This document shows positions 5,479 to 44,783 of a stretch of 64,000 bases of DNA, piece after piece. Numbering within the stretch: the stretch's first letter is position 1; each line of letters starts with the position of its first letter. A program made the position numbers and the translations under genes. This stretch comes from Eledone cirrhosa (taxonomy: Eukaryota), in NCBI GenBank assembly GCA_964016885.1, contig OZ024764.1, forward strand, positions 22,692,001 to 22,756,000. The letters run 5' to 3'. The notes beneath the pieces are model-generated. The model did not search any database. It was not told where the DNA came from and saw only the letters and a program-made list of their open reading frames with translations.

Positions 5479-8035
5479 TTCTCTCTCAACTCATCTATGC
5501 TTGGTCATTGATGCACATTGACATTATACATCCAACGGAGCATACTTGCTTCATTTCTCTCCAGTCGTTGCATATCCTCCACAGTTGCTGTCTATGTCTC
5601 ACTACCGTGCAGCATCACACATCTCACGCAGGCATCACAAGCCATTTGTTCTTAGAGAGAAACCCTTCTTTGTCAACATAGGAAGCAGCTCCCTAAACTT
5701 CTTCCAACCCGTCCTTATTCTAGATACTATGGCCTCTGGGCACCCTCCTCCCATGCTAATCTGATCACCTAGATACCGGAAGCTATCAACCACTTCTATA
5801 GAACCTATTTGCATTTGAAAAATGTGTCTATCACTGCGACTTCTACTGTCAAATTTCCCTGTACATCTACTACATATGTATTTTTCCCTACCTGTTAGTT
5901 TGCCTGCTATCCCACTACATTTCTTGTGTACCCAAAATCTGCATTGTGTACATTATAGAATTTATGCCAGTTCCTTTTCTACATATTGAACAAGGCCATT
6001 TCCCTGATGGAATGACAGTTTTGTCCTCTTTTCTACTCATCAACACTTTAGTCTTAGCTAGGTTCACTCTCAGTCCTCTTGATTCCAACTGCTGTTGCAA
6101 TAGCCAGAATTTATTCTCTAGCTCCTCTACTGATTCTGCTATAAGAACCATATCGTCAGCATAGAGAACATGCCATGGGCACCTAGTCTTAAACTCCTCT
6201 GTTATGACTTGGAGGACTATAATGAACAAGAGCGGGCTGAGGACCGAACCCTGATGTACTCCTGCATCTGTAATTCCTCACTAAACTCCATGCCTACCCT
6301 CACTTTACTGACAGCACCTCTGTACATAGCTTGCACTGTCCTCACAAACTATTCATCTACACCTAGTTTCCTTAGGGACCACCAGATGACAGATTGGGGT
6401 ACTCTATCAAAGGCCTTCTCTAGGTCAACAAAAACTAAGTATAGTGGTTTTCTTCTCTAAGAACCTCTCTTGTAGTTGTCTCACTAAGAAGAGGGCATCT
6501 GTTTCACTCTTTTTCTAAGTTGCGCTAGTATTCTTTCTGTCACTTTCATAACCTGATCCATCAGTTTTATACCCCTATAATTACTCCCCTCCAGAACATC
6601 CCCTTTACCTTTACCTCAATTTATGAGAATACTGCTGCACCAGTATTTGGGGGTGACACCACCATATATAGCTTGATTAATGATACGTGCAACCAGTTTA
6701 ATTCCTAATTCTCTTGATGCCTTCAGCATCTCAGCAACTATCCCCAACAGTCCAGCGGACTTACCATTTTTCATTTCCTTAATTGCCTCTTGGACCCTAT
6801 AGTCGTCAATCTCAATAGCTGGTCCTTCTGTCGGGTCTACTGAAGGTAGCTCCTCTCCTATTCATTCTCCACATTCATCAGTCTCTCATAATGACATTTC
6901 CAGGCCTCCTTTTTTTTGAGAATCAGTGACACTAAGTGCACCAACATCCTGATTTACACTGACACACTGCCTTGCAATGTGGATCACCGCACATCTCTGA
7001 TCTCCCCATCGCAGGACATTGGCAAACCTTCTACTCTCAGCCTCCCTGCATGTTAAGTAAACCTGACATCTAGCTTCTCTCTTAGCGGCTGTGAATCGGT
7101 CTCTACCCCTACCATTTTTCCAAGCCTTTTGTCTCTAATGGCTCTATCTACCGTGCTGTTCCACCACCAGGTCACCCTCTGTCTGGTTGGAGCTCTGCTC
7201 CAGCCACAAGTTTCTTCAGTAACCTGCAGTAAGTTGTCACGTAAGAAATTCCAGTTATCGTCCATGTCATAGGACTCTAAATCGTCTTCTTTTTCGTCAT
7301 ACACATCTTGAAGGGCTTTCCTAAATTTATATTTTAGTGAAAGGTCTTTTAGTTTCCAGACCTTCCTTTGTCACACTTTCTTGTATGTCTCTCTTTGTCT
7401 CTCGCTTACTGAGATGTCACTAACGACTAACCTATGTTGGTGGGGTACATTGTTCCCTGGGGTATGCAAGAAGTCAATCTGTCTCATGTGCTCACCTGAT
7501 TGGTAGGTTATTAGGTGGTTGGTAGGTTTCTTGAAGTGTTGCAAATGGTTAGTTCACTTGCATCACAAAATACAAGAAGCCTCACTCCTTCTTCGTTTCT
7601 TGAGTCATAACCATGACCACCATGTACCCCAGTATATCCATCCTCGAACTGTCCAACATGACCATTGAAGTCCCCTGCTATTATAACTAGGTCTCTGTCA
7701 TTGTGGTTATCTCTACTTATTCCTTTTCTATATATGGAGCAGGGCCACTTTCCTGAAGGGGTCAGGGTCTTCTCTCCTATCCATTAGCACTTTAGTTTTG
7801 GCTAAGTATATTCTCAGAACTTACCATTTCAAATTCTATATCTATAGCTGGTCATCTACATAGAGAAGTTTCCATAGACAGCCAGTCTTAAACCTCTCTG
7901 TTATGGCTTGGAGAACTATGATGAACAACAGTGGGCTAAGAACTAAACCATGATGAACTCCTACCTGTACCTTCAATTTCACACTAAACACACTTTACTG
8001 ACAGCTTCTCACAAGCCATTCTTCTACACCTAATT
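5479..8035 (-). mobile_element. Degenerate RTE LINE(s): endonuclease-linker-RT, plus a second RT fragment at ~7710-8035
   Basis: ORF pieces FIIVLQVITEEFKTRCPWHVLYADD, GLRVNLAKTK, TWWWNSTVDRAI; many frameshifts. Confidence 0.9.
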
Positions 8036-8042
8036 TCTTTAA

Positions 8043-8250
8043 CCCTTTAGTATATAAACTGGCCATATCTGGCCAGAATTGTCTCATGTCTTTCTGTTCA
8101 AACTGGCCGTAACTGGTCACTTATACTTATGTTAAGGTATTGTTCTCAAAATAAGTAACATCAAAATCTCATAGATTTGATATTATGAGTGATAAAGCAT
8201 TTACTGTGAAAATATAATAGTAAATATAGAGTAATGTGAATACTAAAGGG
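8043..8250. mobile_element. piggyBac-type MITE (208 bp)
   Basis: TTAA|CCCTTTAGTAT ... ATACTAAAGGG|TTAA. Confidence 0.8.
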
Positions 8251-8432
8251 TTAATCTGATGTCACTAATAACTACTTTTATCTGTCAGTTTAATCTAATG
8301 TCACTAATAACTACTTTTATCAGTTAGTATAATCTGATGTCACTAATAACTACTTTTATCAGTCAGTTTAATCTAATGTCACTAATAACTACTTTTATCA
8401 GTCAGTTTAATCTACTACCACTAATAACTAAC
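8251..8432 (+). repeat. 39-bp minisatellite (~4.5 copies)
   Basis: Unit TTAATCTAATGTCACTAATAACTACTTTTATCAGTCAGT. Confidence 0.9.
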
Positions 8433-8792
8433 CTATGTTAGTCAGCACATTCTTCACCAAAGAAGGCCTTAGTATTTATTACAGTCCATTTATCAATATA
8501 GAAATATTATATGAAATTTGTACTGATGTATTACAAGTTTCTGAGTATCTTATAATGTTCTTTTATTATTTCAGAATACCAGAGGACATTGGCATTAAAG
8601 AGCACGTTACATCAGACATATCCTCAACATTAACCATTTCTAATGAAATACACTAACCATCATTTTCAAATAATTTTGAAAACACTCAACACTCAACACT
8701 TTGAAGTGATTTAGTAATATAACTAAATTTCTCAGTATTAAGCTGTGAATTATGTGAGAAACTGAGGTGATTGATATCTTTTAGTAGGAGAT

Positions 8793-9989
8793 ATGTCGAA
8801 AAATATAGTAAAATCACCATTCCACTGTGATATCTGTGGTAAATCATTCTCTCGTAGTAATCAGCTAACTACTCACAAACGCATTCATACAGGAGAGAAG
8901 CCATATCACTGTGATATCAGTGGTAAATCATTCAGTCGCAGTAATACCTTAACTAATCACAAAAATATTCATACAGGAGAGAAACCATATCACTGTGATA
9001 TCTGTGGTAAAACGTTCTCTAAAAATAATAACCTAACTACTCACAAACGTATTCATACAGGAGAGAAGCCATATCACTGTGATATCTGTGGTAAATCATT
9101 CAGTGACAGTAGTAGCTTCAGAGTTCACAAACAAATTCATACAGGAGAGAAACCATATCACTGTGACATCTGTGGTAAAACGTTCTCTAAAAACAATAGC
9201 GTAACTACTCACAAACGTATTCATACAGGAGAGAAGCCATATCAATGTGACATCTGTGATAAATCATTCTCTCAAAGTAGTCACCTAACTACTCACAAAC
9301 GTATTCATACAGGAGAGAAGCCATATCAATGTGATATCGGTGATAAATCATTCAGTGACAGTAGTAGCTTCAGAGTTCACAAACAAATTCATACAGGAGA
9401 GAAGCCACATCACTGTGACATCTGTGGTACATCATTCAGTCACAAAAGTAACTTAACTACCCACAAACGTATTCATACAGGAGAGAAGCCATATCAGTGT
9501 GATATCTGTGGTAAATCATTCTCTCGTAATAACCTAACTACTCACAGACGTATTCATACAGGAGAGAAACCATATCACTGTGATATCTGTGGTAAAACAT
9601 TCACTAAAAATAATAACCTAACTACTCACAAACGTATTCATACAGGAGAGAACCCATATCATTGTGATATCTGTGGTAAATCATTCTCTCAGAGTAATCA
9701 GCTAACTTCTCACAAACGTATTCATACAGGAGAGAAGCCATATCACTGTGACATCTGTGATAAATCATTCTCTCATAGTAAAACCTTAACTACCCACAAA
9801 CGTACTCATACAGGAGAGAAGCCATATCACTGTGATATCTGTGATAAATCATTCTCTCAGCATAAAACCTTAACTATCTACAAACGTACTCATACAGGAG
9901 AGAAGCCATATCACTGTGACATCTGTGGTAAATCATTCTCTCATAGTAATACCTTAGCTATCCTCAAACGTACTCATACAGGAGAGTAG
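8793..9989 (+). CDS. Tandem C2H2 zinc-finger protein 1 (14 finger repeats; 4 with lost ligands, 1 with a 1-aa deletion; premature TAG)
   Basis: 398-aa ORF of CxxC-x12-HxxxH with TGEKPY linkers; upstream acceptor TTTCAG at 8574. Confidence 0.9.
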
Positions 9990-10148
9990 CCATATCATTG
10001 TGACATCTGTGGTAAATCATTCGCTGACAGAACTAGCTTAGCTACCCACAAACGTACTCATACAGGAGAGATTTACCACATCTGTGGTAAATCATTCACT
10101 CTTAGAGGTAACTTAACCAAGCATGTGCGTATTCATAAAGAAGTTTAG
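9990..10148 (+). pseudogene. In-frame continuation of ZNF1 beyond the premature stop (one intact and one broken finger)
   Basis: Reads [52 protein letters not shown], matching the paralog ends [11 protein letters not shown]. Confidence 0.85.
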
Positions 10149-10796
10149 CTGTATCAATATCAAACTCATTACATCATACTACAACAACAACAATTGTGTA
10201 GATCCATCATCCTGGCTAAAACTGGGGTTAACCTTGTAGGTTTTAACTAGGACAGGGATCATAAACACCAGGTTTCCAATTTTGAAGTAGTGTTTGAAGA
10301 TTTTGTGTAAATTAAAGTTTTTCACATTAAACTTTCATTTATTATACTTTAACAGGTAAGATATATATTTGTATTTTTAGTAAAGGTTGGGAACTTCTGT
10401 AATTTAAACCTGCCAATAAAATGAAAACTTTTGTTGTTGCTAGTCTGACATTGATATTAATTCTATTGTCCTGTACATTGTCTCAAATATCACAGATTAA
10501 ACAGATTTTAACAATAACAACAGAAATCAATAACTTGTAAGCCTAATATCTAGCTTCCATTTTAACCATTTGATATTGTTGTTCCCCTCCTGTCTCGTCA
10601 GGTCTTTTAGATTTCAACTTCTATCTACTGTACTATTCCATCACCAAGGCAACATTCATCTGGCTGGCAGCTTACATCAACTACAGATCTCATCAGTGGT
10701 TCACAACAGGCTGTCTGAAAGAAACTTCCAGATATCTTCTATGTCATAGCTATCAATCTCCTCCTCCTTATCATATGTATCATGTAGAACATCTCT

Positions 10797-11375
10797 GAAT
10801 TTATATTTAACAGGGAGATCTTTTACTGTCCCTACCCTTTTCTCTAGGTTGTCTTGTACCTCTCTCACAGTCCCTCTAGATCTTATATTTAACAGGGAGA
10901 TCTTTTACTATCCCTACCCTTTTCTATAGGTTGTCTTGTACCAGTCTCACAGTCCCTCTAGATCTTATATTTAACAGGGAGATCTTTTACTGTCCCTACC
11001 CTTTTCTCTAGGTTGTCTTGTATCTCTCTCACTGTCTCTCTAGATCTTATGTTTAACAGGGAGAATTTTACTATCCCTACCCTTTTCTCTAGGTGGTGTT
11101 GTACCTCTCTCACAGTCCCTCTAGATCTTATAGTTAACAGGGAGATCTTTTACTGTCCCTAGCCTTTTCTCTAAGTTGTCTTGTACCTCTCTCACAGTCC
11201 CTCTAGATCTTATATTTAACAGGGAGATGTTTTACTGTCCCTACCTCTTTCTCTAGGTTGTCTTGTACCTCTCACAGTCCCTGTAGATCTTATATTTAAC
11301 AGGGAGATATTTTAGTCTCCAACCCTTCTATCTCCAGATAGTCTTGTATCTGTCAGTCCCTCTAGATATTACACC
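10797..11375 (+). repeat. 82-bp minisatellite (~7 copies) in the putative 3'-UTR intron
   Basis: TTATATTTAACAGGGAGATC recurs at 10801, 10883, 10965 and onward. Confidence 0.9.
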
Positions 11376-11427
11376 TAGTATCTAGTCTATGTTTTCTAAA
11401 TATCTTAATGTTTCTCTACTATTTCAG

Positions 11428-11860
11428 AATATCACATGACCTTGACAGAAAAGAGTCTTTTAAAGACAGCAGAAAGATGTTACATTCAAGTGATATAAAC
11501 TTATTTAGTCTGTGGTGAAATATTTCTTCTGAATTGAGATAAATAACAACGTTTTCCTTTTTCACTGTCTGGAATATTTACAAGATGATTTTACGTTCTG
11601 ATTAAACTTTGGATATTTACAAAGGAGTTTTCAAAATATTTGGATATTGACAAAGATCACATTTGATAAAATTATGAACAATAAAAATATTTACATCAAC
11701 ATAGGAATATTTTCCAGAAGAGATGGGAAAATCATTATACCACTGTAATATTTGTGGTAAAATATGCTCTCTTCTTCATATGTAGAACATCTAACTAAAC
11801 ACTTTAACTAACAAACTATTGTGCTATAGAATTGACAAACTTGAGGTATGTTTAATAAAT
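11428..11860 (+). pseudogene. Decayed second zinc-finger exon / putative terminal exon
   Basis: Acceptor region homologous to that at 8574; 11723-11785 reads MGKSLYHCNICGKICSLLHM*; AATAAA near 11854. Confidence 0.65.
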
Positions 11861-11913
11861 GTCACATATTTCTCCAAACTTTCGTTTACTAACTTTAATT
11901 TGAAGCTATGTTA

Positions 11914-12136
11914 TCTATATACTACTAAAACTCTGTGATTGTGTCTTGTCCGTAATTTAATACATCTAAAACAGTGCATAATGGGGAAATACTTTGAAAA
12001 GAATAAAACAAGTTTTGTATTAAATGGAGCACAGGTTCCCAAAATACGGGATTTCTGGGTACCTTGATAACTATAGGGAGAGAAAGAGATAGTGGTTGTG
12101 AGAGAGAGGGAGCTGGTGGTGTTGTTTAATAAAATA

Positions 12137-12199
<63 letters not shown>

Positions 12200-12283
12200 G
12201 TATGTGTATATTTTAACTATTTTAATATGACTTTAAAAAATAGTTTTAAGGCAACGTGACCCAACAGGTCGCGAGTGGTCTAG
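11914..12283 (+). mobile_element. Non-autonomous Helitron-like element
   Basis: A|TCTATATACTACTAAAA start; GACC..GGTC hairpin then CTAG|T end; no TSD. Confidence 0.75.
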
Positions 12284-12685
12284 TTTGTTACTAAATACTA
12301 GATATTAGAGGGTCATGTTCTAGATGTGCTGGAAGAGCCATTCCATCTTGTGAGGTTCACCCCAGCAGCTAGCCACCTCAGCACCTATGGTGGTATATTT
12401 ATTATATTATTTATTCTTATCATTAACATTAATATAAAAGATAATTATATATTTTTAGAGAAGAACCTCTAATTTCATATAGCTTAGGGCTTCAGTAGGT
12501 AAAGTCTGGCCCTGCTTGTCTTGTATTTTTTATGGGAGAAGTTAGGGAATACGGTTATTGTGTGAAAGTTTTCTAAATCTTCTTCAGCCACTAACATGGA
12601 GAAGATATTTCAGTAAGAAGGTTCACATCCTGACATCTATAGCTGTTAACAATGAGGTTGGAATTCATTATTAAACAAATGTTAT

Positions 12686-13730
12686 ATCATCATCACTGTT
12701 TTACATCAGTTTTTCCACGCTGGCATGGGTTAGACGAGTTATCCTGTTGTAAGCAATGCCAGGTCAGGTGACCACGTGTTGCTCCTACAGAACCAATTTT
12801 GGATTGGTTTCTACAGCTGGATGCCCTTCCTAGCACCAACCTTATTTACATTGAGTACTGGGTGCTTTTTACTATCTCACCAACTCGACCACTTCACAGT
12901 GTGGGCTGGGTACTTTTTTACTTTTTGTCATGACACCTACATGACCACTTTACAGTGAGTACTGGGTACTTTTTATCGTGACACCTACATGACCACTTTA
13001 CAGTGAGTACTGGGTACTTTTTGTTGTGACACCTACATGACCACTTTACAGTGAGTACTGGGTACTTTTTGTTGTGACACCTACATGAACACTTTACAGT
13101 GTCAATTGGGTACTTTTTGTCGTGACACCGACATGACCACTTCACAGTGTGGATTGGGTACTTTTTGCCATGACACCTACATGACCACTTTACAGTGAGT
13201 ACTGGGTACTTTTTGTTGTGACACCTACATGACCACTTTACCGGGTGGACTGGGTACTTTTTGTTGTCACACTTACATGACCACTTTACAGTGTGGACTG
13301 GGTACTTTTTGTCATGACACCTATGTGACCACTTTACAGTGTGGACTGGGTACTTTTTGTTGTGACACCTACATGAACACTTTACAGTGTCAATTGGGTA
13401 CTTTTTGTCGTGACACCGACATGACCACTTTACAGTGTGGATTGGGTACTTTTTGCCATGACACCTACATGACCACTTTACAGTGAGTACTGGGTACTTT
13501 TTGTTGTGACACCTACATGACCACTTTACCGGGTGGACTGGGTACTTTTTGTTGTCACACTTACATGACCACTTTACAGTGTGGACTGGGTACTTTTTGT
13601 CATGACACCTATGTGACCACTTTACAGTGTGGACTGGGTACTTTTTGTTGTGACACCTACATGACCACTTTACAGTGTGGACTGGCTACTTTTTGTCATG
13701 ACACCTACACAACCTCTTTACAGTGTTGGC
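12686..13730 (-). repeat. RTE 3'UTR remnant (minus) expanded into a 48-bp minisatellite (~17 copies)
   Basis: CATCATCA tail at ~12687; unit ATGACCACTTTACAGTGTGGACTGGGTACTTTTTGTTGTGACACCTAC resembles the reverse complement of RTE UTR 29529-29586. Confidence 0.85.
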
Positions 13731-23350: not shown

Positions 23351-25135
23351 ATGTCGAAAAATATAGTAAAATCACCATTCCACTGTGATATCTGTGGTAA
23401 ATCATTCTCTCGTAGTAATCACCTAACTACTCACAAACGTATTCATACAGAAAAGAAGCTATATCACTGTGATATCTATGGTAAATCATTCAGTCACAGT
23501 AGTAGCGTCAGAGTTCACAAACATATTCATACAGGAGAGAAGCCATATCACTGTGATATCTGTGGTAAATCATTCAGTCGCAGTAATACCTTAACTACTC
23601 ACAAACGTATTCATACAGGAGAGAACCCATATCATTGTGATATCTGTGGTAAATCATTCACTTGTAGTCATCACCTAACTACTCACAAACGTATTCATAC
23701 AGGAGAGAAGCCTTATAAGTGTGATATCTGTGGTAAATCATTCAGTTACAATACTAGCGTCAGAGTTCACAAACAAATTCATACAGGAGAGAAGCCATAT
23801 CGCTGTGACATCTGTAGTAAATCATTCTCTGACAGAAGTAGCTTCCTTAAACACCAACGTATTCATACAGGAGAGAAACCATATCAGTGTGATATCTGTG
23901 ACAAATCATTCAGTCACAGTAGTAGCGTCAGAGTTCACAAACGTATTCATACAGGAGAGAAGACATATCACTGTGACATCTGTGGTAAATCATTCAGTCA
24001 GAGTAATACCTTAACTACTCACAAACGTACTCATACAGGAGAGAAACCATATCACTGTGATATCTGTGATAAATCATTCTCTCGTAGTAATAACCTAACT
24101 ACTCACAAACGTATTCATACAGGAGAGAAACCATATCACTGTGATATCTGTGGTAAAACGTTCTCTAAAAATAATAACCTAACTACTCACAAACGTATTC
24201 ATACAGGAGAGAACCCATATCACTGTGATATCTGTGGTAAATCATTCACTTGTAGTCATCACCTAACTACTCACAAACGTATTCATACAGGAGAGAAACC
24301 ATATCACTGTGATATCTGTGGTAAATCATTCAGTGACAGTAGTAGCTTCAGAGTTCACAAACAAATTCATACAGGAGAGAAACCATATCACTGTGACATC
24401 TGTGGTAAAACGTTCTCTAAAAACAATAGCGTAACTACTCACAAACGTATTCATACAGGAGAGAAGCCATATCAATGTGACATCTGTGATAAATCATTCT
24501 CTCAAAGTAGTCACCTAACTACTCACAAACGTATTCATACAGGAGAGAAGCCATATCAATGTGAAATCGGTGATAAATCATTCAGTGACAGTAGTAGCTT
24601 CAGAGTTCACAAACAAATTCATACAGGAGAGAAGCCACATCACTGTGACATCTGTGGTACATCATTCAGTCACAAAAGTAACTTAACTACCCACAAACGT
24701 ATTCATACAGGAGAGAAGCCATATCAGTGTGATAACTGTGGTAAATCATTCTCTCGTAATAACCTAACTACTCACAGACGTATTCATACAGGAGAGAAAC
24801 CATATCACTGTGATATCTGTGGTAAAACATTCACTAAAAATAATAACCTAACTACTCACACACGTATTCATACAGGAGAGAACCCATATCATTTTGATAT
24901 CTGTGGTAAATCATTCTCTCAGAGTAATCAGCTAACTTCTCACAAACGTATTCATACAGGAGAGAAGCCATATCACTGTGATATCTGTGGTAAATCATTC
25001 TCTCGTAGTAATCACCTAACTACTCACAAACGTATTCATACAGGAGAGAAGCCATATCACTGTGACATCTGTGGTAAATCATTCTCTCATAGTGGTAACT
25101 TAACCAAGCATGTGCGTATTCATACAGAAGTTTAG
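23351..25135 (+). CDS. Tandem C2H2 zinc-finger protein 2 (21 finger repeats; 3 with lost Cys, 1 with a 1-aa deletion)
   Basis: 594-aa ORF ending [11 protein letters not shown]; acceptor at 23139. Confidence 0.93.
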
Positions 25136-27696: not shown

Positions 27697-28046
27697 TTTG
27701 TTACTAAATACTAGATATTAGAGGGTCATGTTGTTCTAGATGTGCTGGAAGAGCCATTCCATCTCGTGAGGTTCACACCAGCAGCGAGCCACCTCAGCAC
27801 CTATGGTGGTATATTTATTATATTAATTATTCTTTATCATTAACATTAATATAAAAGATAGTTATATATTTTTAGAGAAGAACCTTTTTGTTGTGACACC
27901 TACAGAACCACTTTACAGTGTAGACTGGGTACTTTTTGTTGTGACACCTACATGACCACTTTACAGTTTGCACTGGGTGCTTTTTGCTGTGACACCTACA
28001 TGACCACTTTAAAGTTTTGGCTGGGTTCTTTTTGTTGTCACCTACA

Positions 28047-29776
28047 ATGCAGTTCGGGTTTGTGTCAGGCAAAAGTACCACAGACGCTCTTTTCATAGTA
28101 CGACAACTACAGGAGAAGTACCTAGCTAAAGGTAAACCCCTCTACTTAGCTTTTGTCGACTTGGAGAAAGCCTTCGACAGAGTCCCCCGCTCCATTATCT
28201 GGTGGGCTCTTAGAAAACTAGGCGTTGACGAATGGCTTGTGAGGGCTATACAAGCCATGTATAAAGAAACAGTCAGCAAGGTTAGAATTAACAACGAATA
28301 TAGTGAAGAGTTTAGCGTAAAAGTTGGCGTCCATCAGGGCTCTGTTCTCATCCCCCTACTATTTATTATTGCCCTTCAGGCTATAACAGAGGAGTTCAAG
28401 ACAGGCTGCCCATGGGAACTCCTATACGCAGACGACCTGACACTCATAGCGGAATCAATGGCCGAGCTAGAGAAGAAATTCCAAACATGGAAGCACGGCC
28501 TAGAGTCAAAAGGACTTAAAATTAACCTGGCTAAGACCAAAGTTCTAGTTTGTAGGAAAGAAAACAAGGCGGCGGTCCCTTCTGGGAAATGGTCGTGCTC
28601 GGTGTGTAGGAAAGGCGTAGGTAGAAACTCCATTTTATGTCTTAAATGCAAAGTATGGGTACATAAAAGATGTAGTGGGATCACAGGTAAGCTAACTAAG
28701 AACATAGATTTTACATGTGGCCGGTGTTCTGGTGCAATAAGTAGCAGCAAGTGCCCAGAAAATACTAGCTCATTCAACTGCGCAGAGGGTTCTATAGAAA
28801 TAGTGGACAGCTTCCGTTACCTGGGCGATAAAATCAGCAGTGGGGGAGGGTGCTCTGAAAGTACTGTAGCTACAGTCAGAACTGGTTGGAAAAAGTTCAG
28901 AGAGCTTATACCACTATTAGCTGCTAAAGGGTTCTCCCTAAAAATGAAAGGCAGGTTGTACGATGCCTGCATACGAACATCAATGCTGCATGGCAGTGAG
29001 ACCTGGGCATTGTGTGCAGAGGATATACGCAGACTAGAGAGGAACGAAGCTTGCATGCTCCGCTGGATGTGTAACAGTAATATACGTGAACGGCAAAGCA
29101 TAAACGAACTAAGGAAAAAATTAGAGATAAGAGGGATCAGATGTTGTTTACTTGAGAGAAGGCTACGTTGGTATGGACACGTGATGCGCATGAAAGTCGA
29201 TAGCTGTATAACAAAGTGCAGGGCAAAAAAGATAGACGGTAGTCACGGAATAGGCAGACCTAGAAAAACCTGGGACGAGCTGATAAACTCCAACATCACA
29301 CACTTACACCTCTCCAAGACAATGTCACTGGACCGAGACCTTTGGCAGTACTCAGTAACAGAGAAGACCCGCCTTACCTAAATATATAGTAAAACCTACT
29401 CCAGCCAGTAGGCATCTCTAACAAAATACACCCCGTCCCACCACCACCACCCCCACCCCATCCACACCACCCCGTTCTATGTAAAGTTATGTTGGTGCCG
29501 CGCCATCCATGCCGAAACAAATGAGATCGTGTAGGTGTCACGACAAAAAAAACACACAGTCCACGCTGTAATGTGGCCATGTAGGCAACATGGTAAAAAC
29601 CTCCCAGACCCACACTGTAAATGTGGTTGGTGTTAGGAAGGGCATCAAACTGTAGAAAACATGCCAGACAGTCCTATGCGAGCAAGACAATCACTCTTGC
29701 CTCAAGTGGGAATACCCCCGTCCAAACCCATGCAAGCGTGGAACACGGACGTTAAATGTTGATGTTGATGATGATG
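28047..29776 (+). mobile_element. Young 5'-truncated RTE LINE with uninterrupted RT C-terminal ORF (to 29381), 3'UTR and (GAT)n tail
   Basis: QFGF..STTDA..FVDLEKAFDRV..GVHQGS..YADD..FRYLG..RLRWYGHV..GRPRKTW; empty site CCTACATGACCAC at 62169. Confidence 0.95.
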
Positions 29777-41251: not shown

Positions 41252-42096
41252 TTAATCTAATGTCACTAATAACTACTTTTATCAGTCAGTTTAATCTAAT
41301 GTCACTAATAACTACTTTTATCAGTCAGTATAATCTAATGTCACTAGTAACTACTTTTATCAGTCAGTATAATCTACTGTCACTAATAACTACTTTTATC
41401 AGTCAGTATAATCTAATGTCACTAATAACTACTTTTATCAGTCAGTATAATCTAATGTCACTAATAACTACTTTTATCAGTCAGTATAATCTAATGTCAC
41501 TAATAACTACTTTTATCTGTCAGTATAATCTAATGTCACTAATAACTACTTTTATCAGTCAGTATAATCTAATGTCACTAATAACTACTTTTATCAGTCA
41601 GTTTAATCTAATGTCACTAATAACTACTTTTATCAGTCAGTTTAATCTAATGTCACTAATAACTACTTTTATCAGTCAGTTTAATCTAATGTCACTAATA
41701 ACTACTTTTATCAGTCAGTTTAATCTAATGTCACTAATAACTACTTTTATCAGTCAGTTTAATCTAATGTCACTAATAACTACTTTTATCTGTCAGTATA
41801 ATCTAATGTCACTAATAACTACTTTTATCAGTCAGTTTAATCTAATGTCACTAATAACTACTTTTATCAGTCAGTTTAATCTAATGTCACTAATAACTAC
41901 TTTTATCAGTCAGTTTAATCTAATGTCACTAATAACTACTTTTATCTGTCAGTATAATCTAATGTCACTAATAACTACTTTTATCAGTCAGTTTAATCTA
42001 ATGTCACTAATAACTACTTTTATCAGTCAGTTTAATCTAATGCCACTAATAACTACTTTTATCAGTCAGTATAATCTACTGTCACTAATAACTAAC
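41252..42096 (+). repeat. 39-bp minisatellite expanded to ~21 copies
   Basis: 13-aa periodic spurious ORF MSLITTFISQFNL. Confidence 0.95.
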
Positions 42097-43037
42097 CTAT
42101 GTCAGTCAGCACATTCTTCACCAAAGAAGGCCTTAGTATTTATTACAGTCCATTTATCAATATAGAAATATTATATGAAATTTGTACTGATGTATTACAA
42201 GTTTCTGAGTATCTTATAATGTTCTTTTATTATTTCAGAATACCAGAGGACATTGGCATTAAAGAGCACATTACATCAGACATATCCTCAACATTAACCA
42301 TTTCTAATGAAAGACACTATCCATCATTTTCAAATAATTTTGAAAACACTCAACACTTTGAAGGGATTTAGTAATATAACTAAATTTCTCAGTATTAAGC
42401 TGCTATTTGGAACATAACTTTGCACAATTTCATGAAGTTACAATGGAAAGTTTTTAGATAAATATAAAGACTGGTATGAAAAGGATAAAACACTTTTATA
42501 TCAGTTGTTTCATCAACACCATTATTTAAAGATTAAAGGAAGCTGTTATACAGAACAGATACAACCTTGTTTATATAAATCTATGGGAGAAATACTGTGA
42601 AATATTTCTTGTAAACTCAATAACCCTTCTATTCTTTGCTGTCTGGAATATGTAGAAGATACAAAATAAAGCTGAAGAAATTTACACATGATTTTGTAAG
42701 ATCTTCATATATTGACAAAGATGATAGTAGATGGAACTACAGGAGTAGAAATATTTCCATTATTACAGGAATAACTAATCAAATGAAAACTAGAAAAATT
42801 AGATTCTTCACTGTCTGGAATATGTACAAGATGATTTTATATGTATATTAAACTTGAAGACATCAACAAAACAGTTTGTATCATCTTTAAATATAAAGAA
42901 AGACCAAGTTGATGGAAATATATCTGGAGGAATATGTTTTAGGAATAATATTATAAACATAAAGAAGAAAAATATCCATATATTGCGAGGAGAAAAATAT
43001 TAAAACTGTGAATTATGTGAGAAACTGACGTGATTGA

Positions 43038-44258
<1,221 letters not shown>

Positions 44259-44783
44259 CAGTAGTACCTTAACCAAGCATGTGTGTATTCATACAGAAGT
44301 TTAGCTGTATCAATATCAAACTCATTACATCATACTACAACAACAACAACAATTGTGTAGATCCATCATCCTTGCTAAAACTGGGGTTAACCTTGTAGGT
44401 TTTACCTATGACAGGGATCATAAACACCAGGTTTCCATTTTTGAAGTAGTGTTTAAAGATTTTGTGTAAATTAATGTTTTTCACATTAAACTTTGATTTA
44501 TTATACTTTAACAGGTAAGATATATATTTGTATTTTTAGTAAAGGTTGGCAACTTCTGTAATTTAAACCTGCCAATAAAATGAAACTTTTGTTGTTGCTA
44601 GTCTGACATTGATATTAATTCTATTGTCCTGTACATTGTCTCAAATATCACAGATTAAACAGATTTTAACAATAACAACAGAAATCAATAATTTGTAAGC
44701 CCAATATCTAGCTTCCATTTTAACTATTTGATATTGTTGTTCTCCTCCTGTCTCTTCAGGTGTTTTAGATTTCAACTTCTATC

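Follow-up and report, generated by a model that had tools for sequence, protein, structure and literature searches.

A gene chimeric between two zinc-finger subfamilies in the C2H2 cluster of Eledone cirrhosa

The reshaping of zinc-finger arrays is usually ascribed to recombination. In old zinc-finger clusters the parents of recombinant arrays are, to our knowledge, untraceable.

In PRDM9, a switch of template from one parental array to another produces new arrays, as inferred from the longest exact matches in the part of PMC8600002 used here. The finger repeats are 84 bp long both there and in the present cluster, but the PRDM9 switches in that part of the paper occur between alleles of one gene, whereas here the partners are non-allelic paralogs from a family of about 200 genes (PMC8600002). 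The duplicated PRDM9 arrays of ruminants are described, in the sections considered, as undergoing concerted evolution (PMC5351255). Similar excerpts on vertebrate poly-zinc-finger paralogs ascribe the gaining and losing of fingers to recombination, and they report gene conversion among the paralogs, detected by GENECONV (PMC2604467), a specificity 'shift' through insertion of new finger-coding segments (PMC5363842), and block duplication in the young clusters of mouse (PMC12575710). Tandem growth by segmental duplication of gene blocks is, according to the same excerpts, a likeness between the poly-ZF and KRAB-ZFP clusters of vertebrates and the cluster studied here (PMC2604467, PMC5363842, PMC12575710). 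Unlike in the vertebrate clusters, the fingers here are homogenised over the whole cluster; in the mouse Chr4 cluster, as portrayed in the excerpt, the recombination scars lie in chimeric LINEs and ERVs and not in finger arrays (PMC12575710).

The C2H2 expansions of cephalopods are likewise very large clustered families, as far as the portions of PMC12513265 and PMC9068888 concerned with them go. The main text of PMC12513265 makes no mention of recombination, conversion, crossing, shuffling or chimeras; the portion of PMC9068888 used here names gene conversion once, for protocadherins, and that of PMC10547256 discusses TE-mediated recombination, not finger swaps. We found no literature report of a mapped finger swap between paralogs in such a cluster, supplements and most subscription papers aside.

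The gene described here clearly illustrates a process that acts throughout the cluster and was known before from PRDM9 and from the zinc-finger clusters of vertebrates. One assembly holds both parent subfamilies, a switch interval of 50 bases and a series of descendants, and the rate and fate of finger swapping between genes become measurable in a large invertebrate C2H2 cluster.

The cluster and its subfamilies

The window, that is, the whole stretch of 64,000 nucleotides analysed (C25:22692001-22756000, in a 3.0-Gb genome), contains four units of about 15-18 kb, every one of which carries a single array of C2H2 fingers in 84-bp repeats. Positions given without C25 are those of the window, and genes 1, 2 and 3 with their parts all lie on the plus strand. 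The motif at the gene start recurs across the C25 cluster, hence the four genes compared in an earlier sequence-only reading of the window are four of about 200 near-identical C2H2 paralogs, clustered at C25, 19.1-23.9 Mb. This motif has 192 exact matches in the genome, the two start variants numbering 105 and 84; the 184 matches listed are all on C25, from 19.1 to 23.8 Mb. For comparison, 200 sequence stretches yielded 203 arrays, with 14 listed gene starts outside the sample. An ATG and at least five fingers are present in 196 of the 203 arrays, and 153 of these are open through the last finger. Blocks of genes on the minus strand are seen at C25 19.1-19.6, 20.97-21.30 and 21.90-22.05 Mb; two of them look duplicated from one another, suggestive of inversions within the cluster.

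The ORF of gene 1 is a tandem C2H2 (poly-ZF) array of C-x2-C-x12-H-x3-H repeats with TGEKP linkers, matching PF13465 (E 2e-116) and PF00096 (E 1.4e-69). Among the best 25 of 38 Pfam families, searched with this ORF only, there is no KRAB, SSXRD or PR/SET domain. The best 120 matches of a protein search are generic ZNFs alone, none of them from a cephalopod.

Two subfamilies are relevant here. The A subfamily comprises ten arrays containing HKSNLTT, including gene 2 (23351..25135), which the array comparison makes a relative of the 5' parent; the B subfamily comprises 17 arrays with the HSKTL/QHKTL/HSNTLAI module. Seven arrays have both modules, and 169 have neither, genes 3 (43056..44258) and 4 among them; the two classes were drawn from gene 1's own fingers, which weighs against the explanation preferred below.

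Two-part ancestry of gene 1

Gene 1 is a real chimera, with fingers 1-11 from the A subfamily and fingers 12-15 from the B subfamily. The sequence-only reading had proposed a chimera made by recombination inside the finger array, with gene 3 on the 3' side; the two-part ancestry and the switch hold, while gene 3 as the 3' parent does not. The ORF runs from the ATG to a premature TAG (8793..9989), encoding 398 aa and 14 fingers, ten of them canonical C2H2. In 183 arrays, the seven junction genes being excluded, fingers 1-11 (8826..9746) differ from the nearest A finger by 2,2,0,0,0,0,0,0,0,0,0 nt and from the nearest B finger by 2-8 nt. For fingers 12-15 (9747..10071; helices HSKTLTT, QHKTLTI, HSNTLAI and DRTSLAT) the differences per 72 nt are 6,10,7,9 from A, 1,1,1,0 from B and 3,9,2,6 from gene 3. 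The sole difference of finger 14 from the B finger HSNTLAI is a His-to-Leu change of gene 1 itself. Thus the genes nearest to the left part are not those nearest to the right part, and along the array the nearest-finger distances change side a single time.

In the arrays aligned on the junction, the last A-type site is 9709 and the first B-type site is 9760, which leaves an interval of 50 bases (9710..9759) overlapping the region near 9720-9800 suggested earlier. Both parents are identical in this interval save at 9752; the state of gene 1 there is the more frequent one in A and is missing from most B genes, which would narrow the switch to 9753-9759. The observations that gene 1 has, as its fingers 4-11, the same fingers as gene 2 at 12-19 (four differences over 8 x 69 nt) and that the KRTH fingers begin at finger 12 were likewise borne out. 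In each of the 11 A-type contexts the finger after QSNQLTS is of the RSNHL or QSG kind, and outside the junction genes HSKTL is preceded by other fingers. Counted separately genome-wide, the two sides of the junction have 22 and 19 exact matches; variants, such as a fragment at C25:21737231, escape exact patterns. The distances of the single fingers, the site patterns and the trees of the flanks support an exchange by recombination, at about 9710-9759, between the finger repeats of two lineages of paralogs. Quite probably, one A-B exchange in this interval made an ancestral gene, which was then likely duplicated into the seven loci that have the junction.

The 5' flank of gene 1 (8114..8792) is of the A type by distances and tree, 0.7-1.1% from the A genes vs 2.6-3.1% from the B genes. 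Taken together, the junction genes are at 1.1% from A and 2.6% from B in this flank, and they nest with three A genes in a tree of 135 genes (support 0.957) and with A genes in a tree of 34 genes (UFBoot 95). Since the diversity of the 5' flank is lower among the seven junction genes (0.4%) than among the A (1.3%) and B (2.6%) genes, the former are the younger, receiving lineage, the recombinant being younger than both parent groups.

An alternative is that the A+B array is ancestral, A-only genes having lost B and B-only genes having gained it from an A+B gene; recombination at the junction would be retained, with gene 1 on the donor side. Among the B haplotypes of the module, that of the junction genes is indeed central. 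However, the 5' flank of the B genes is far more diverse (2.6% vs 0.4%), and in these genes several haplotypes of the module occur behind several different sets of upstream fingers, so we consider this alternative quite improbable.

The flank lacks a 606-bp block, the deletion point being near 8745. The block is absent from genes 1, 2 and 4 and present in gene 3, as noted before, but it is missing in 73 of 196 genes, in both start-variant classes. Two short sequences that resemble each other border the loss (42403-43008 vs 8745), suggestive of a microhomology deletion. A full upstream segment had also been ascribed to the gene-4 type; this proved incorrect, as gene 4 is without about 7696-8160.

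The case for a chimera with gene 3 as the 3' donor rested in part on markers whose states were read correctly: GTTAC/ATTAC and GAT/GTT upstream, GCTAGTCTG/GTTAGTCAG and GAGAGAGGG downstream. These are common polymorphisms of the family, GCTAGTCTG being found in 54 of 183 scored genes and GTTAC in 164 of 172; the GAGAGAGGG allele, common to genes 1 and 3, is rarer (15 of 114 scored genes). The Tigger-type spacer occurs in 46 of 196 genes, two A genes among them. Tigger, hAT and Helitron are labels of the sequence-only reading. Pfam gave a Spin-doc finger for the 'hAT' ORF and no domain in the one 'Tigger' ORF tried. An RT domain was found by Pfam at 27993-29381.

That gene 3 or its direct lineage supplied the 3' half is very improbable, in spite of the shared GCTAGTCTG, GAGAGAGGG and Tigger-type spacer and of its position among the genes nearest to gene 1 at 11900-12140. 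Fingers 12, 13 and 15 are missing there (3, 9 and 6 differences), and we rejected gene 3 as the 3' parent for the lack of the HSKTL-QHKTL-HSNTLAI-DRTSL module, present in 17 other genes. Its terminal structure is different too, gene 1 having no frameshifted HTGVL* end and a terminal finger of the LRGNLTK type. In the 3' flank gene 3 is at 3.3% from gene 1, an ordinary distance (rank 54 of 121) though shorter than those of genes 2 and 4 (ranks 88 and 96), and it has one of the nine distal minority alleles considered below. Sharing between genes 1 and 3 may extend, at most, to a short tract near 12100. The claim that gene 1 matches gene 3 and not genes 2 and 4 downstream is not borne out within the window either, where five sites group gene 1 with gene 3, three with gene 2 and three with gene 4, and where gene 1 is nearer gene 2 (3.6%) than gene 3 (4.8%) at 10080-10800, gene 4 being misaligned in part of the alignment. 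This four-gene test of informative sites was itself set aside, having too few sites, inconsistent support for gene 3 and a partly misaligned region.

The HTGVL* end of gene 3 (44249-44300) is a deletion fusing the last two fingers out of frame. An end of this type is common to 26 of 196 genes with varied arrays.

The seven junction loci and the 3' side

The A+B junction is present at seven loci: C25:22700826 (gene 1), 23782202, 23445657, 22793787, 22638579, 22533084 and 20300224. The second belongs to a twin of the whole window at C25:23761836-23838499, 1.08 Mb away, which is 99.8-99.9% identical over every stretch compared; the region carrying the 23782202 copy is 99.8% identical over 39.6 kb. 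The twin may have come from a segmental duplication of recent date, or it may be a haplotype left uncollapsed, and it provides no independent evidence for the junction.

The high repetitiveness of the region, together with a 99.8% window twin that could be an uncollapsed haplotype, brings up the possibility of an assembly or haplotype-switch artefact. It is hardly credible, as five more loci have the junction with their own flanks (the 3' side 0.9-2.8% from gene 1) and their own finger counts, and hence the junction is not a misassembly of the gene-1 locus. The junction is older than this locus and is present beyond it. In public read data, Logan contigs match the array in pieces of at most 76 bases, none of those listed spanning 9709-9760, and one RAD-seq run placed 58 reads.

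Three of the junction copies have open frames of 479 aa with 15 canonical fingers, one is of 423 aa with a finger lost, another has a frameshift, and the frames of gene 1 and of its twin end after 398 aa. The premature stop of gene 1 (9987..9989), in the linker after finger 14 and common only to the twin at C25:23782169, was not mentioned in the sequence-only reading. Gene 1 is probably decaying or making a shortened protein.

Downstream of finger 15, a 6-base filler (10072..10077) marks an in-frame deletion scar, removing the first Cys of the terminal finger, in six of the seven junction genes. It is followed by the damaged terminal finger of the LRGNLTK type with the natural stop (10078..10148). 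The 3' flank (10149..12900) has five SNPs (11503, 11551, 11863, 11965 and 12071) private to the six junction genes and found in no other gene scored; its distal part is not A-like. As the same scar and all five SNPs are shared by six of seven genes, these have one origin and were duplicated later. They form one clade in the 3' tree of 159 genes (0.986), where their sister is one B gene with support of 0.39, followed by unrelated genes. A grouping with six B genes, obtained for 34 chosen genes (UFBoot 95), was dropped after the 159-gene tree. In the remaining junction gene, C25:20300224, two B fingers are followed by another kind of ending.

Nine minority alleles were compared in the distal 3' flank (10567-12051); the A genes share none of them, the B genes five and gene 3 one. 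The distal 3' flank thus appears to have been replaced too, as by crossover. The 5' flank is of the A type and the distal 3' flank is not, the latter not being assignable to a B donor. Two observations count against the preferred explanation: on average the 3' flank is about as far from A as from B and from other genes (2.8-3.4%), and at three of four proximal sites (10214-10446) gene 1 has the allele common to most A genes.

In another scenario, the B fingers were patched into an A gene by long gene conversion or a double template switch and the 3' side changed in separate exchanges. Besides the equidistance of the 3' flank from A, B and other genes, it agrees with the nearest 3'-flank neighbours of gene 1 varying by segment, with r2 between flank sites of about 0.04 already at 100-200 bases, and with the C25:20300224 gene ending differently after two B fingers. 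Such patching, which entails no reciprocal product and no change in copy number, we regard as unlikely, since it meets two difficulties: the lack of all nine distal minority alleles from the A genes, and the B module and the LRGNLTK finger being already joined in the C25:21737231 fragment.

This fragment is a 5'-truncated array of six fingers having the B module and the LRGNLTK finger together; with C25:21014861, it contains the nearest outside relative of the terminal finger of gene 1. At 10078-10200 it has zero differences from the nearest junction gene, and beyond 10200 it is at the family median distance. The fragment begins right behind the spacer's 73-bp tandem repeat; a deletion of several kb appears to have taken the gene start with it.

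No exact or full 3' donor occurs among the genes sampled (14 listed starts lying outside the sample), so that the choice between crossover and long conversion, as well as any change in copy number, is a matter of inference. Moreover, 16 of 17 B genes end in HTGVL*, absent from gene 1, which again counts against the preferred explanation. In this one assembly, no sampled array has RSHLTTH followed by an A-type end, the arrangement expected of a reciprocal product. Nevertheless, unequal crossover is more likely than long conversion, and the data are most simply explained by a crossover whose donor has since changed or lies outside the sample.

According to the preferred explanation, one non-allelic homologous exchange in the 50-base stretch of identity would have joined A fingers 1-11 to B fingers 12-15. 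It would have been a crossover or a break-induced template switch, also replacing the 3' flank, and the donor was presumably a B gene with a terminal LRGNLTK finger, as in the C25:21737231 fragment. An end-joining deletion may then have removed about one finger at 10072, and segmental duplications would have spread the chimeric gene. The gene-1 branch appears to have gained the stop and two His losses later. The hybrid array would bind a composite DNA site.

Finger shuffling across the cluster

As gene 1 is a damaged copy, its own biological weight is small; the part worth following is the shuffling across the cluster. In 81 dereplicated genes, the linkage between flank sites falls from r2 of 0.26 at less than 15 bases to 0.03-0.04 at 100-500 bases, and r2 across the array is 0.023 vs 0.013 +/- 0.002 after shuffling; rapid radiation and recurrent mutation, too, would reduce the flank linkage.

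A heuristic screen at three settings found two-parent junctions in 24-47 of 198 arrays and in 11-24 of 98 subfamilies, counts that vary with the thresholds, have no null model behind them and do not separate exchange from differential deletion out of a longer ancestor. The gene-1 junction is among the best supported. A stricter first screen, which gave 3 of 198 arrays, missed gene 1, the positive control, and its thresholds were loosened. Gene 2 itself (here 23384-25135) passes the two-parent screen at fingers 8/9 at all three settings. Judging by these comparisons, finger swaps like that of gene 1 appear to be common in the cluster, and caution is needed with single trees of cluster genes, which mix ancestries.

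Rough pooled counts for 962 distinct fingers give pN of 0.47 at positions -1, +2, +3 and +6 vs 0.09 outside the helix, the corresponding pS being 0.42 and 0.18. Cluster-wide, the amino-acid variation is concentrated at the DNA-contact positions, and the Cys, His and Phe residues are conserved.

It is possible, if short of probable, that the cluster is a PRDM9-like combinatorial library, in which modules of several fingers move between about 200 paralogs and useful hybrids are kept and amplified. If so, a single exchange inside the 84-bp repeats would be enough to make a new DNA-binding array, the kept hybrids would include the three intact A+B copies of 479 aa, and the repertoires would differ between individuals.

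Another kind of change is seen in the KNTKLTR subfamily, where long runs of near-identical fingers, up to 13 consecutive, resemble minisatellite expansion within single genes (C25:20353511, 20560986, 20706552 and 21572148). Unit 3 of the window has two further peculiarities. A 39-bp repeat upstream of the gene (41252-42109) is present there in 22 copies vs 2.6-4.6 elsewhere, and an extra insertion of 1.8 kb is situated at the site corresponding to 8113.
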